From: Candidatus Latescibacterota bacterium
GTDB lineage: Bacteria > Latescibacterota > CBDEFO01
Assembly (NCBI GenBank): GCA_965248755.1
Contig: OZ252149.1
Span: 3,200,001-3,264,000 of the forward strand
Direction: 5' to 3'
Length of the DNA stretch: 64,000 nucleotides
The position numbers were made by a program. This document shows positions 36,001-42,000 of this stretch, piece by piece; positions within the stretch are counted from its first letter, which is position 1, and every line of letters starts with the position of its first letter.

Positions 36001-39000
36001 TCAGAGGGGATAATCCTGTGGTAGAGATGTCACAGGACGATTGGGATAGTATGTTGAATCTGAATCTGAAGTCGGCCTTCCTGTGCGCAAATGCAGTTTT
36101 ACCGGCAATGATAGGGCAAGAAAGCGGCAGGATCACGATGATTTCGTCTAAAGCGGCAGAACAGCCATTTGTCGGAGCTTCGGCTTACTCTGTGGCTAAG
36201 GCGGGAATTATAACGTTGGTCAGAACCATAGCTGATGAGGTAAAAGACAGCGGCATTACCGCAAACTGCGTTATGCCCAGCATTATAGACACAGAGCAGA
36301 ATAGAAGATCTATGCCGAAGGCCGATTTCGACAAGTGGGTCAAACCGGAAGACCTCGCTCGTGTTCTCCTGTTCTTGTCATCAGACGCATCGAAAGACAT
36401 AAATGGCGCTTCGATCCCCGTCTACGGGAGGGTCTGACAAGATAAGTAGACAGTAGTCAGTAGCCCCCGATAGGTTCAATCGGGGGTAGACAGGGAAAGG
36501 CAAGGGCAGACGTGCCCGGAAGACAGTAGACAGGGCAACTCCTCCCACCCCGGTATGCTGACGAGGAACAGCACGTTAATCTTGAAACGCCTCTGAATCG
36601 GACAACGAACCTGAAATATCCAGATCTGGCATTGAGGTTGAGTTTCGCTCCCTCAGTATGTCTCGTCCCGATCTAACCGCTCGGTATCCGAATCGCTCTC
36701 GCAGAGAATCGACTGCTCCTTGAAAGCGCTCCTTTTTTTCAGTTTCGTTATCCCACAAGCTCAACTGGCGGGCTGCAGGGCTCAGGTTGCCGGCACCTAC
36801 ACCCAAGAGTCGCACAGCCTGTCCTGGACTCCAGAGCTTTTCAAAGAGACCCATCGCCTCACTGTAAATCCTAAAGTCCAGATCGGTCGGCTCTCTCAAT
36901 GCAACTTGCCGCGTTAAGGTGGTAAAATCGGGCCAGCGCAACTTCAACGTGACTTTGCGGCAACTTACGCCCTTCCACCTAAGTCTCCTTCCCACTACCT
37001 CAGACAAGACAAAGAGAGTTCCCTGGAGTACATCCCTGTCAGGAACGTCGTGTGAGAAGGTTGTCTCCTTGCTCATAGACTTTTCTTCCCTTGTGGTTTC
37101 AACAGGGCTGTCGTCGATGCCTCGTGCATAGAGCGCTAACCTCCAACCGTTCACCCCAAAACGCCGACCGAAGTATTCCTCAGGCCATCTGGCAAGATCC
37201 CCTATGGTGCTGAACCCAAGTTTTCGCAGGTAACGGGCTGTTTTTGTTCCGACCCCCCACAGCGCACTGATTGGAAGAGGTGCAAGGAAGGCCGCCTCCT
37301 GACCAGGCGGCACCACCGTAATGGCATTGGGTGGTTCGACCATTCCCTGCGGACCGTTCGTCTGAACCGATGCTTTACCGACATTGTTAGCGATCTTTGT
37401 AACTATCTTGTTGGTAGCAGCGCCCAATGAACATGGTAATCCAATGTTGTCCCGGATTGAGGTCTGTAATTTCCGAGCTAACACTCCTGCCGGCTCTGCG
37501 CTATGTGATAAATCCAGAAACGCTTCATCTACCGAAAATTTCTCAACAACTGGCGTCAATGCATACAGATGCTCAATCCCCCATTCGCCATATTAGACCC
37601 GAAAAATGGTTGTCAAAGTCGCCAGAACATGTTATATTACAATAAATAAGACTCATAAATGGCGGATAAATATTGATCATCCAGAGGGTGAAAGAATGAA
37701 AGTAGGTTTTGATGGAGGAATAAAGCTTGAATTTCATGGTGCAAAGGTGACATCAAACGGTGGACTTCTTGCGTATCGTGACCTTGATTACGCACTGGGA
37801 TTATTTGATTCGGTATCAGCGGTTTTTACCGATAAACGCACAGGCCGTAATATCCAACATGATATATCTACTCTCCTGCGTCAATCGATATACAGCCGTC
37901 TTGCAGGATATGAAGATGTAAATGACGCCGAGCGATTATCCGTTGATCCCGTCATGCGAGCGATTACCGGAAAGAAGGACAAAGGCAGGCAAGCTGCCAG
38001 CTCCAACACGATAGGACGTTTTGAAACTGATATACTGACTCAGCATGACAATCTCAGAAACTTGTCAGATATCAATGGCAAGTGGGTTCAAAAAGCGATG
38101 AGTAAAACACAGCATCAACGAATCATTCTGGACATGGACAGTTCGGAGAGTCCGGTACATGGCCAGCAGGAAGGATCAGCTTACAACGGTCATTTCGGAT
38201 GTACCTGTTTTCATCCAGTGTTCTGCTTCAATCAGTTCGGGGATTGTGAAGGAGTCCTACTTCGCTCTGGTAATGTTCACAGTGCTGATCGTTGGAAGGA
38301 AGTTCTGGAACCGATCGTCAAGAGATACGAGAGCAAGAAGAATAGGAAATACTTTCGAGGCGATGCTGCATTCGCAAAGCCTGAGATTTATGATTATCTG
38401 GAGGGAAACGGCTATTTGTATGCCATTCGGTTTCCCGCAAATGAGATACTCTATGAAAAGATACGATACCTGCTGACTCGGCCAGTTGGACGACCGCCGA
38501 GGAAACCGATTGTATCGTTATATGAATTTCAATATAAAGCGGCCAGTTGGGATCAATCGAGGCGAGTGGTCGCCAAGGTTGAATGGCACCAAGGGGAGTT
38601 ATTCCCAAGAGTGGGATTTATCGTGACCAACATGAGCGCCAAGCCAGAAGGCGTGGTACACTTCTACAATGGCCGTGGCAGAGCTGAGCAGTGGATTAAG
38701 GAGGGCAAGTATGCTCTGAACTGGACCCGACTCTCATGCAAGCGTTTCGTCTCCAATCAGGTGAGGCTCTGGCTGTTTGTTCTGGCTTACAACTTGGGCA
38801 ACTTCCTGCGACGTTTTGTTCTTCCGAAGAAAATCAAACACTGGTCACTACGCAGCCTCCTCGTGAAATTTATCAAAATCGGAGCGAAGATTGTCAGACA
38901 CAGCGGATATATTACGTTTCAAATGGCTGAGGTTGGGATAGACAAGAGGTTATTTGCCGAAATATTATCCCGGATTGAACGATTGCGATGTTATTCTGTT

Positions 39001-42000
39001 TAAACTGCCACATTTTTTTGTGAGTCGATGGAGAGGTGTCTCTAATTGGAGGATTTAAACACAAAGAAAGTGATAATTCAGAGGAAAATACTATTTTAAT
39101 TGAAAAAAGTACTTGTTGAAAAATGTAAAAGTGGTAATATTAATTCAGAAACAAGAATGTATCGAAATATAATCCCTCATGAATGTGATATGGGGAATGT
39201 CGGTTGTACTCTATCTTGAATTTATAAAAACTCAAAAAAGTTTTGGATGTTTTGTCTCTCTCACGTATCTATAATACGACAGTGATATAAATTTCTCATA
39301 AAGTATTTGTAAAATAGTTGACAAATACTAAATATATGTAAAATAAATAAGATATGTCATCAAAGAAAGCTTGACAAAGCTTGGGAATTGTACTATACGT
39401 ATAACAGTTACTAACATTATCCTGATTAAGCAAAGAACTTGATGACTTCTATGCGGTGTCTTTCACGAATTCTACGTAACAGCTATAGGTAGTCCTAATT
39501 TGTTTGCTGAAAAGATACTGCTATTAACTTAAAGAACTTTCATGCCGGAAGGGGAAATAGTTTCAGGCAAAGGAAAGGAGGGAGCGAAACATCAGAAAAG
39601 AGCTCCTGTATAGCAGTTGATGGCATTGTTCTTGTAAGGAGGTGATGAAACAAAATGAGAGGACGAGCAGTGAAACCTTCCACGGTTCTGGCTACGATAA
39701 CTTTCGTTATCTTGGGTATCGCTGCACAAATACACGCCCAGGTGTCCGCCCCAATTATCACTAATTACGTCAGAGCGGTTGCAGTCGAACCCGGAGGGAA
39801 CGCGGTCTATGTGGGTTTATACATTGCAAGGCGTATGGTCCGATTCGCATCAGAGGACGTGGGAAACGCCGACCCGCGCTCTTTGACCATAGCGATAGCC
39901 GCCAAGGACGCCTTTGACTTTCTCGGCTCCCCCGAGGGTGAACTTGCGCTCGCTCAAGCGGCAGTCTACCTTGCCACAGCCCCTAAGAGCAATTCTGTAT
40001 ACTCCGCATATCAGATGGCCCAGGAAGACGTCCAAAAAAGTCCCTCTTTGCCCGTCCCTCTCCACATTCGCAACGCCCCTACGCAACTTATGAAAGAACT
40101 CGGATACGGAAAGGGCTACAAATACGCCCACGATTCTGAGGAAAGCTACATAGCTCAGGAATATCTGCCCGACAATCTGGCAGGTGCCAAGTACTACTAC
40201 CCCACAGAACACGGATACGAAAAGAAGATAACGGAAATGATGAAATGGTGGGAGAGCCTTAAGCAGTCAGTAGACAGGAGTCAGTAGCCCCCGATTGAAT
40301 CTATCGGGGCTAGACAGGGCACCGCCTACCATCCCCCTTTCCTAAGAAGACATCAGTTTTTCCTCTTCAACTTTCGCAGGAAATTGTAGGGGCGAGGTCC
40401 CCTCGCGCCAAGGACTGGGTCTCCCAGCCCCTACGAAACGTTGCTTGGAACAGGAGCACGAGGTAAATTGCTCGTATCCGAATTCGACTACTATCTGCCG
40501 CAAGGACTCATCGCTCAATATCCCTTAGTGGAGCGGGGCGAATCCAGACTGATCGTCGTGGACAGGCAGCGCAAAAGCATAGATCACAGGCACTTCAAGG
40601 ATATAGTGGACTACATAAATCCAGGTGATTGTCTCGTCATCAACGATATAAAGGTCCTCCTGGCTCGGCTGATAGGAAAGAGAGTTGTCACAGGGGGCAA
40701 GATCGAAATTCTACTTCTGAAGAGATTGTCGGAATCTCCGCCCACCTGGTCGGTACTGGCAAAGCCAGGAAGGTTAGCCAGATTGAACGCTCAATTTGCC
40801 TTCGGGGAGAAAGATAACGCTCTAACTGGGGAAATTGTGGAGATCCAGCCGGACGGAATCAGGACTATGCGATTTGAATGTACAGGATCGTTTGAGCAGA
40901 AATTAGCTCAAATTGGACAGGTCCCGCTCCCTCCTTACATAAAAAGATCCTCTCCTTATGATCAGGACTTTCAAAGATACCAGACCGTCTACGCAAAAGT
41001 GGAGGGAGCAATCGCTGCTCCTACTGCCGGACTGCACTTCACAGATCATATCCTCGATAGAATAAGAAACAAGGGCGCATCTGTAGTCCCCCTAACCCTG
41101 CACGTTGGACTCGGTACGTTTGCACCCGTGAAGACAGAAAGAGTGGAAGACCACACGATGCACGAAGAGAAGTACCAGGTCTTGGAAGACGCCGCAACTA
41201 TTATCAATCGTAGAAAGGGAAAGGTCTTCGCCGTGGGTACGACTGTGCTCAGGACGCTGGAGTCAACATCCCACTGTGACGGATCTGTCCACCCCGGATC
41301 AGGAGAGACGGACTTATTTATCTATCCGGGCTATAAGTTTAAGGTCGCAGACGCTCTCTTGACGAACTTTCACCTCCCCAAGACCACTCTCCTTATGCTA
41401 GTCTGCGCCTTTGGTGGTGCGACCACTCCGTGTGGAAAAGATCTTATTTTCAAGGCCTACGAGGAGGCTATAGAGGAAAGATATAGATTTTACTCCTACG
41501 GAGACGCCATGCTGATCGTGTGATCGCTACCCTGTCTTTCCGAAGTTGTCCAGAAAGATCACAAAGTCGGACAGTCCGATCTCTCCATTACCATCTAAAT
41601 CAAATTTAGGATCCCAATTAGCCGAATCAGTCGTTGTCCCGAAAGCATCCAAGAAGAGGACAAAATCTGAAAGACCTACTTCCTTGTTCCCGTCAAAATC
41701 TCCTATAAGCGAAGTGGAAGAAGGCTGGTTGGCCTGCCCTAATGTCGGCTCAGCGACTACCCAGTCTGACGATTGATGGGGGAAGTTCCCATCTCCTACA
41801 TACTGAATAGACTGTCCGGTCGGAACACTTGTGGGTCAATACACTGTTCGGAGGCTTTCCCATATACCAGGTGTCGCCGGGGGACAATTACTAACTCAGG
41901 ACACAGTTTGACCGCTTGAGCCATCGGTATCCCTGAGCCTATACCGAACTTTCGAGCTGCATACGAGCAGGAAGCTACTATCCCTCGACTATCAGGTTGC

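Follow-up and report, generated by a model that had tools for sequence, protein, structure and literature searches.

The window analysed in this study is a stretch of 64,000 nucleotides from a Candidatus Latescibacterota chromosome, and it holds a dinB gene (DNA polymerase IV, minus strand) that is split into a 3' part (36576..37572) and a 5' part (41841..42107). The two parts are separated by a second-round unit on the plus strand (37578-41835), composed of an insertion sequence, a 612-bp segment, a rarA tail and queA, and enclosed by the target duplications TCAAT (37573..37577 and 41836..41840, plus strand). In the sister genome dinB is contiguous at this target, with TCAAT as a single site, and removal of the unit here leaves an empty-site dinB frame of 422 aa.

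The insertion sequence, copy c34 of 47, is 1,626 bp long (37578..39203, plus strand, as are all features below). Its left (37578..37594) and right (39187..39203) inverted repeats are alike at 13 of 17 positions, and both start with CC. The transposase has 435 aa from its probable start (37696..39003), with the frame open from 37606. A promoter-like site with an extended -10 precedes it (37610..37638), and a second one faces outward 30 bp inside the right end (39144..39173); both match at 10/12 and are consensus matches only, and 11 sites of the outward kind were found versus 6.1 in shuffles. Members of the IS1380 family are about 1.65 kb long and have short terminal inverted repeats beginning with CC. 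The transposase matched NCBIfam NF033539 with 385 bits (cut-off 180) and Pfam DDE_Tnp_1_4 (PF13701), its best plasmid match (58.5%) is annotated as IS1380 family, and it agrees with the one DDE transposase of IS1380 type, about 450 aa long, that is expected in the family. By its protein, length and ends the element is a member of the IS1380 family, whose target duplications are given as 4-5 bp in PMC12116815.

In the dinB unit the right inverted repeat was skipped. The first-round passenger (612 bp, 39204..39815) covers the sequence upstream of a gene from a multi-copy family together with the gene's first 54 codons, and one paralogue in this family has a weak Sortilin-Vps10/BNR match; the exact donor is absent from the genome. 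It closes with the first alternative end, ATGTGGG (39809..39815), which was used on entry into rarA at contig position 3849774. The next five bases, TTTAT (39816..39820), are a carried copy of the rarA target duplication, and this internal copy is the mark of a second round. They open the second-round passenger (2,020 bp, 39816..41835), which matches the native rarA-queA region (contig positions 3852012-3854031) at every base, contains a full-length queA (40441..41523; NF001140 and TIGR00113 above cut-offs) and closes with the second alternative end, TTGTGGG (41829..41835). Across the junction runs a chimeric 210-aa ORF (39655..40287), in which the start of the passenger gene is in frame with the RarA/MgsA C-terminal domain.

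Copies, passengers and empty sites

The whole genome contains 47 full copies of the element at 99.877-100% identity, in line with the 47 copies of at least 99.6% identity described in an earlier note on this DNA, and 29 diverged or partial matches. A further, 48th hit is partial; it is copy 1 met again in the 7.2-kb terminal overlap of the contig and was left out of the count. The element expanded recently. Of the 47 copies, 18 are plain insertions, 26 are closed passenger units, 1 has a passenger without duplication and 2 lie beside deletions. Captured units included, the target duplications have 5 bp (40 copies), 6 bp (2), 4 bp (1) or a 4/5 match (1), and three copies (c9, c16 and c45) have none; T occupies position 2 in 34/40 target sites. 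The direct 5-bp duplications noted earlier at 15 of the 47 copies were found again, and the two described as off by one proved to be one of 6 bp and one of 4 bp. Eight families of right flanks were also recovered; the left flanks are unique, as had been claimed, except for c29 and c30, the only pair with a shared left flank, which sit at a common site.

The 26 closed units, the number and size range of which had been anticipated, carry 58-5,734 bp of downstream DNA, each enclosed by a target duplication and mostly without microhomology; no left-side capture was seen among the 47 copies. Together the passengers amount to 37,458 bp, or 38,716 bp with c16 included, instead of the previous estimate of about 42 kb, and they represent 20 distinct capture ends (58-5,734 bp). 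In a breakpoint test, 23 of the 28 copies with a family breakpoint closed within -2..+1 bases of it, compared with at most 6 when the left 5-mers were permuted (20,000 rounds). Among the five misses, c40 closes when the copy nested in it is taken out, and for c44 the sister's intact rarA places the closure at 612. In the 17 passengers compared with their donors, 0-1 base differences were found. The cargo comprises queA, a punA paralogue, arsM, a PQQ dehydrogenase, a kinase-regulator pair and a 5.7-kb block, and one unit breaks the genome's only rarA. All the cargo and targets listed beforehand checked out, namely queA, punA, arsM+gcd, the hybrid kinase-regulator pair, an integrase and the 5.7-kb block as cargo, and dinB, a primase and rarA as targets. 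The cargo is the host's own chromosome, and no resistance gene was found among the passenger ORFs scanned. A 186-bp passenger had been assigned to nine copies and described as ending in a site like the right repeat. It occurs eight times as such and in two second-round units built on it, and its end matches the right repeat at only 8/17 positions.

Four copies had been left open (c9, c16, c31 and c45), and we took them as the four whose passenger ends had been called tentative. Only c16 bore this out, with a passenger of 1,258 bp and no target duplication. A longer closed unit for c16 was rejected, because 0/4 TTTAA sites within 9 kb fit the end motif described below; a paralogous region showed no continuation, and there was no orthologue of the region among 40 of 101 candidates scored across the whole sister. 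The other three passengers were rejected: c31 is a plain insertion whose duplication matches at 4/5 positions, c45 adjoins a deletion that, compared with the sister, spans about 507 bp, and c9, which looks like a hybrid of two copies, sits on fliI with its 5' part lost.

The sister genome, of which 2.43 of about 4.6 Mb was read, showed empty sites at the predicted offset for 15/26 units, while 11 were uninformative and 0 contrary (2.40 Mb of sister DNA). Nine of these are orthologous sites, two were reached through a shared IS3-like repeat and four through paralogues. Its IS1380 frames were broken in 16/16 candidates scored and it has one queA versus two here, which agrees with the earlier statement that the sister lacks an intact copy and has a single queA; one punA paralogue, the arsM-PQQ dehydrogenase block and the 5.7-kb block are also single there.

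Shared flanks could be made by misassembly across the repeat, and passengers 100% identical to their donors on a contig with a 7.2-kb terminal overlap invite this explanation. However, misassembly would not make duplications that match on the left or restore sister genes when the unit is removed, and independently built contigs show depth steps and breaks, so we regard it as extremely improbable. For the dinB unit, contigs of run X1, which like X3 may be the source sample itself, break at 40170 and 41835, with depths of 11, 357, 32, 18.5 and 7.7 along the unit. Because the duplications lie at the exact ends of the shared flanks, the sister has empty sites and independent contigs break at unit ends, one-ended capture in the manner of ISEcp1, as the earlier note had proposed, is supported at the level of sequence.

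Ends of the captured pieces

The ends defined by duplications share a short motif, which reads W-T-V-B-R-S-N towards the cut. T was found six bases inside the cut at 19/19 ends (P 5e-12) and A/T (W) at seven at 19/19, with a purine at -3 in 17/19 and S at -2 in 18/19. Both true element ends also have T at six and A/T at seven, and the c16 end, excluded from these counts, fits the full motif. Leave-one-out scoring placed each capture end actually used in the top 0.1-4.1% of positions. The motif was drawn post hoc from about 20 ends, 3/20 miss its strict form, and several ends shift by 1-2 bases with the assumed duplication length (for c26 the duplication was then taken as 6 bp).

The ends resemble the right repeat little, with 4-9 of 17 matches (mean 6.4 vs 4.3 random). 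Better matches were skipped in 20/20 cases; resemblance to the repeat as a whole does not seem to decide where a capture ends. This changes one part of the earlier interpretation, as the open copies had done for three of its four tentative passengers, and the capture itself remains supported. There is one match to the motif per 55 bp, and as many as 115 matches were passed over; therefore the end would not be the first match, and something besides the motif probably also selects it. The right repeat's own 7-mer scores 5.1, mid-range within 3.0-8.3, and there is only weak support for the view that skipping results from weakness of this repeat. The idea that the ends are target-like sites was rejected: beyond the cut the donor shows no base preference, unlike the targets.

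The same units would also be explained if a second, decayed IS end or a MITE closed them to make composite transposons, which we consider just as improbable as misassembly. In favour of this, the genome does hold the 29 diverged or partial matches to the element mentioned above, and composites are formed here by an IS3-like family. However, the ends fall within ordinary genes whose sequence continues in the donor, the right-repeat match is only 4-9/17, and no second IS end or MITE was present at the 18 ends with a readable donor. The IS3-like family was itself tried as a second transducing family; its shared flanks lack 4-bp closure and end at other IS copies, and it was read as forming composites.

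Donors, mechanism and related systems

The donor is intact in 18/20 captures, and the c8 donor is itself intact with 12 descendants. Second rounds had been noted before, and five were found: c22 and c34 from c44, c33 from c24, c39 from c11 and c30 from c16. The two donors reported as lost are still missing from the genome, and no orphan remainders or cut-and-paste scars of them were found.

Donor and daughter frequently differ at IS positions 121 and 854, and these differences need gene conversion or consensus effects in addition. Homologous recombination or gene conversion among the 47 identical copies, instead of transposase, might then be held to have duplicated the flanks, and the reshuffling of these two variants, the hybrid-like c9 and the common site of c29 and c30 point in this direction. 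However, recombination would be expected to exchange flanks and separate the two members of a duplication, whereas the 26 units keep their own new duplications, mostly without microhomology and with ends that share a motif. As the main cause it is largely refuted, and we rate its chance as very slight, if a shade above that of composites or misassembly.

We are highly confident that a recently expanded IS1380-family element duplicates its flanks by one-ended capture. The left end stays fixed and is often paired with a site downstream of the right repeat; the IS with 58 bp to 5.7 kb of flank then inserts elsewhere between 4-6 bp duplications. As the 18/20 captures show, the donor normally retains IS and flank, so that the flank is duplicated. 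In a later move a unit can keep its end, as the 186-bp unit did (8 copies), or take in still more flank (5 cases). The distal cut appears to need the short outer motif, with T(-6) and A/T(-7) invariant, a correlation consistent with a transposase that binds specifically at the left end and holds the second end loosely, reading T(-6)/W(-7) there; another factor probably also selects the end.

As to the pathway, we lean slightly towards a copy-out or replicative route. The same capture by strict cut-and-paste, with the donor surviving on the other replicated arm or repaired from it, is possible and somewhat less probable. In favour of cut-and-paste, the pathway for these elements is stated as unknown in PMC9330008, IS1380 is listed with piggyBac in several papers, and two donors are missing. 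Against it stand the 18/20 intact donors, the 12 descendants of c8 and the lack of an orphan remainder of the missing two. The surviving genomes cannot tell cut-and-paste with donor survival from copying.

The capture mechanism is already known, as had been remarked earlier, from ISEcp1 transposition units and ISPme1 transposable modules. PMC12589106 and PMC10100714 describe ISEcp1 (ISEc9) units of varied size in which a single IS keeps its left end fixed and uses alternative right ends; they are flanked by 5-bp duplications and carry DNA and a duplication copy from the previous site. The present element resembles ISEcp1 in all these respects. However, its transposase is only 25.5% identical, so it works like ISEcp1 and is not ISEcp1, and its cargo is host chromosome with no resistance gene among the scanned passenger ORFs. 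The alternative-end rule given for ISEcp1 in PMC12116815 is 3-12 of 14 identical bases plus a terminal G. The 4-9/17 matches here fall inside the published range, but terminal G occurs at 10/19 ends, compared with T(-6) at 19/19, and two printed ISEcp1 alternative ends have G at -6, a misfit to the T(-6) rule. In Paracoccus, according to PMC9330008 and PMC3281130, one IS (ISPme1 or IS1247a) mobilises variable 3'-adjacent DNA as transposable modules (TMos), with an outward promoter and transposition thought to be replicative. The present element likewise takes along variable lengths of DNA on its 3' side with one IS copy. TMos come from trap plasmids or plasmids, whereas the 27 units, donors and empty sites here come from one chromosome.

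Two genomes of the same phylum, G046 and G069, encode an IS1380 transposase in elements whose ends start with CC and have A and T at positions 6-7; their repeats are perfect or near-perfect, unlike those here. Right flanks were not shared among the 26 G046 copies compared, of which 15 have an exact 4-bp duplication and 11 do not, nor among 6 G069 copies, all six of which have a direct duplication.

A genome-wide census of IS1380 capture or an end logo was not found in the literature searched, although subscription articles may hold end analyses; the W-T-V-B-R-S-N end rule and the census are new here. We hold it evenly balanced whether the second end is set by about seven outer bases, with no advantage for the element's own right repeat and with copying instead of moving, under an end rule that differs from that of ISEcp1. 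Among the surviving insertions, 20 of the 45 classified show a new end, about 4 of 10 jumps, and the element would then be a genome-wide gene duplicator and fuser, comparable to LINE-1 with its 3' transduction.

Among the main routes of gene mobilisation is one-ended capture by IS1380 elements, which has mostly been seen singly under antibiotic selection. One chromosome with 20 distinct captures gives its natural rate, its size range and its donor retention (18/20), and the end motif is short enough for direct testing. In this bacterium the process duplicates ordinary genes, makes an in-frame chimera and breaks the only rarA.

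The IS1380 element and its copies

The insertion sequence at window 37578-39203 (1,626 bp) belongs to the IS1380 family and encodes one transposase, which scored 385 bits against NCBIfam NF033539 (cut-off 180) and matched Pfam DDE_Tnp_1_4. The best transposase match among 72,556 plasmids was 58.5% identical, and the identity with the ISEcp1 transposase was 25.5%. The left and right ends of the element were alike at 13 of 17 bases. The 4.54-Mb single-contig genome contained 47 full copies (c1 to c47 along the contig, the window copy being c34) with 99.877-100% identity, together with 29 partial or diverged matches; one more partial match was the terminal overlap of the contig, which repeats copy 1. 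A full-length sibling with 93% identity was present once (contig 587205-588829). In the sister species G001, all IS1380 frames were broken (candidates scored, 16 of 16), so the expansion is recent and lineage-specific.

The variation among the 47 copies was confined to IS positions 121 and 854. At position 121 (window 37698), G was changed to C in 10 copies, which turns the probable transposase start from ATG to ATC. Three of these ten copies were donors, that is, copies with the IS and its native flank, and their daughters were mostly ATG; position 121 or 854 often differed between donor and daughter. These differences suggest that copies underwent gene conversion once they had transposed, or else that consensus effects are at work, and the ATC variant may possibly represent silencing spread by gene conversion.

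Other mobile elements were also expanded. The second element (1,266/1,288 bp), which we take to be IS3-like from its two overlapping frames, had 68 full copies, mostly with 4-bp duplications. At contig 1280495-1284343 it flanked a 1,295-bp core that includes a UvrD-helicase fragment. In eight other places a copy of the core start stopped at another IS, each time at a different position (28, 322, 533, 650, 882, 1,125, 1,133, and 1,185), and the core resumed beyond it in at least six of them; intact extra copies may be selected against, or local targeting may be strong. Another IS, about 1.5 kb long (e.g., L024:6993-8520), was expanded in the sister and low-copy in the source genome.

Units that carry captured flanking DNA

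The earlier note had claimed that the element skips its right end and takes the neighbouring chromosome along. The 47 copies bore out this feature: 26 were units, in which the IS and a passenger (the captured right-hand flank) were closed by a target duplication. The passengers totalled 37,458 bp, with sizes of 58, 98, 186 (eight copies), 274, 321, 397, 612, 966, 979, 1,177, 1,243, 1,428, 2,301, 2,632, 2,780 (after the nested c41 was taken out), 4,662, 4,788, 5,520, and 5,734 bp. Another 18 copies were plain insertions, of which 15 had a direct 5-bp duplication, c13 had 6 bp, c41 had 4 bp, and c31, which lies inside a 427-aa frame that is restored, matched at four of five bases. The sole unit without a duplication was c16, which had 1,258 bp in common with c31 and served as donor to c30. 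The remaining two copies bordered deletions. At c45, about 507 bp that the sister has was missing; c9 joined a 5'-truncated fliI (contig 833373-834365, without the first 108 profile positions, adjoined by other flagellar-looking ORFs) to a gene of the family behind the 612-bp passenger. A TIGR01026 profile search of the sister yielded no fliI.

The right flanks fell into eight families, and the left flanks were unique apart from c29 (contig 2701891-2703516, 186-bp passenger) and c30 (2711395-2713020, 4,662-bp passenger). These two entered separate IS3-like copies, 8 kb from each other, at the same base (CTGAC) and in opposite orientation; the common site may be a hot spot or a product of conversion.

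Chance closure and misassembly were both weighed. In 23 of the 28 copies with a family breakpoint, the copy's own left 5-mer lay within -2 to +1 bases of it (the exceptions were c9, c16, c31, c40, and c44), against a maximum of 6 in 20,000 permutations. When 2.40 Mb of the 4.6-Mb sister was read as sequence (2.43 Mb in later work), the sister sequence resumed after the left flank where the unit ends in 15 of 26 units. Nine of these empty sites were orthologous (c20 with a low score), two lay in a shared IS3-like repeat, and four in paralogues at 68-76% identity. Ten of the other 11 units had no match in the 2.40 Mb, and one lay at the edge of a stretch that was read; no empty site there contradicted a predicted unit end. 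In sequencing run X1, whose contigs were built independently, contigs broke at window 40170 and 41835, the points at which the c22 and c34 units part from the common sequence. The depths along the c34 unit were 11 (dinB), about 357 (IS), 32, 18.5, and 7.7, depth here not being copy number. These breaks and depth steps argue against misassembly; X1 may be the source sample and is therefore not an independent population.

Whole genes were copied as cargo. They included queA, one of two punA-family genes (three matches versus two in the sister), an arsenosugar-type arsM with a PQQ dehydrogenase (single in the sister), a response regulator with an HDOD-kinase-receiver hybrid and a Gfo/Idh/MocA oxidoreductase, a phage integrase, and a 5.7-kb block of a binding protein, a short-chain dehydrogenase, and a PfkB kinase, found in one place in the sister. 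Gene fragments included Lon, acyl-CoA dehydrogenase, and TPR genes. Passenger and donor differed by 0 or 1 base in all 17 comparisons. Of the 20 distinct ends, 18 still had a donor in place, with IS and flank. No donor of the 612-bp or the 979-bp passenger was present in the genome, where a search for an orphan remainder found none.

The unit in dinB

The whole c34 unit (window 37578-41835) had TCAAT on both sides. Taking it out in silico restored a 422-aa dinB frame, and dinB was uninterrupted at the corresponding site in the sister; a second dinB-like gene lies at contig 1.09 Mb. The 2,632-bp passenger matched the DNA to the right of c44 (contig 3849774) at every base. Since c44 is itself a unit, with the IS and 612 bp inserted within rarA between TTTAT repeats, the c34 unit is a second round. 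The sister rarA runs through the c44 site. The cargo of c34 contained, in order, the 612 bp, one TTTAT, the rarA tail, the whole queA, and a piece of the next gene. A shorter sibling, c22, carried a 966-bp passenger into a primase-polymerase gene. The genome has two queA genes versus one in the sister, and rarA is broken, with a single N-terminal half. The first capture also made a chimeric ORF of 210 aa (window 39655-40287), in which 54 codons of a passenger gene are in frame with the RarA C-terminal domain; it occurred twice in full and once as a variant whose tail differs. A repeat roughly 260 bp long, at about window 43657-43917, recurred dozens of times at 90-96% in the genome and the sister alike.

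Choice of the captured end and its meaning

Overall similarity to the right repeat did not explain the choice of end. The ends matched the last 17 bases of the repeat at 4-9 positions (mean 6.4 versus 4.3 at random), and a better match was skipped in 20 of 20 captures. The c12 flank even held an exact 11-base copy of the repeat's tip, 8 bases past the end used by c19 and within the c26 passenger. The outer heptamer was more regular. Counted inwards from the cut, the 19 duplication-defined ends had A/T at -7 and T at -6 in all cases (P 5e-12 for -6), never T at -5 or A at -4, a purine at -3 in 17, G/C at -2 in 18, and G at -1 in 10. The bases A,T at -7/-6 also occurred in both true ends of the element, in the element repeats of G046 and G069 (other genomes of the phylum), and likewise in the ISEcp1 left repeat printed in PMC12116815. 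The motif was derived post hoc, its strict form was missed by 3 of 20 ends, and c26 fits it only with its exact 6-bp duplication (T at -6 was 18/19 before this re-reading). Leave-one-out scoring placed each true end among the top 0.1-4.1% of positions. The c16 breakpoint matched the full motif. The genome has one full-motif site for every 55 bp, and each capture passed over 1-115 such sites; therefore, the motif is not enough on its own. The right repeat misses the strict motif at -3, but its matrix score of 5.1 was mid-range (3.0-8.3 for the ends, 6.6 for the left end), which does not show the right end to be defective.

The left end was fixed and the downstream end variable, with 4-6 bp duplications at AT-rich targets (T at position 2 in 34 of 40), donor retention, end re-use, and repeated overshoot. 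Together with the empty sister sites, this upholds the one-ended capture proposed in the earlier note. Of the 45 classified copies, which are survivors only, 20 had a new end, 7 re-used the 186-bp end, and 18 were plain insertions. We infer that the transposase binds the left end specifically and takes its partner end by the outer bases alone. We lean towards copying over cut-and-paste with repair; a finished genome fits both.

A close transposase match was present in 7 of 121 genomes of the phylum, the source genome included. G046 (78 matches) and G069 (45) had their own IS1380 expansions with perfect or near-perfect repeats. No common right flank was found in 26 G046 copies (from a subfamily with 40 matches listed) or 6 G069 copies; therefore, in this small sample, frequent capture is not general to IS1380 expansions. 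Direct duplications were found in 15 of 26 and 6 of 6 copies, respectively, and the 11 unmatched G046 copies could be units with a donor outside the DNA read. Eleven of the 26 G046 copies had unlike target-like 4-mers on the left and right (e.g., CTAG/TTAG), which suggests recombination between copies or imperfect duplication.

Studies report that ISEcp1 forms units of varied size via imperfect right ends with 5-bp duplications (PMC12589106), that these bring along DNA and the duplication copy of earlier sites (PMC10100714), and that the ends share 3-12 identical bases and a terminal G (PMC12116815). Two printed ISEcp1 ends have G at -6, outside our rule (PMC12116815; bioRxiv 10.1101/616961). 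ISPme1 and IS1247a in Paracoccus are described as forming the same structures (PMC9330008, PMC3281130, PMC13423793), pathway and donor fate are called unknown in review, and ISPme1 appears replicative (PMC9330008, PMC3281130). No genome-wide census of IS1380 capture or end logo was found in the literature searched, which most subscription papers lay outside. The capture mechanism is already known, and the value of this work lies in how many capture events were resolved in a single chromosome and in an end rule that can be tested.
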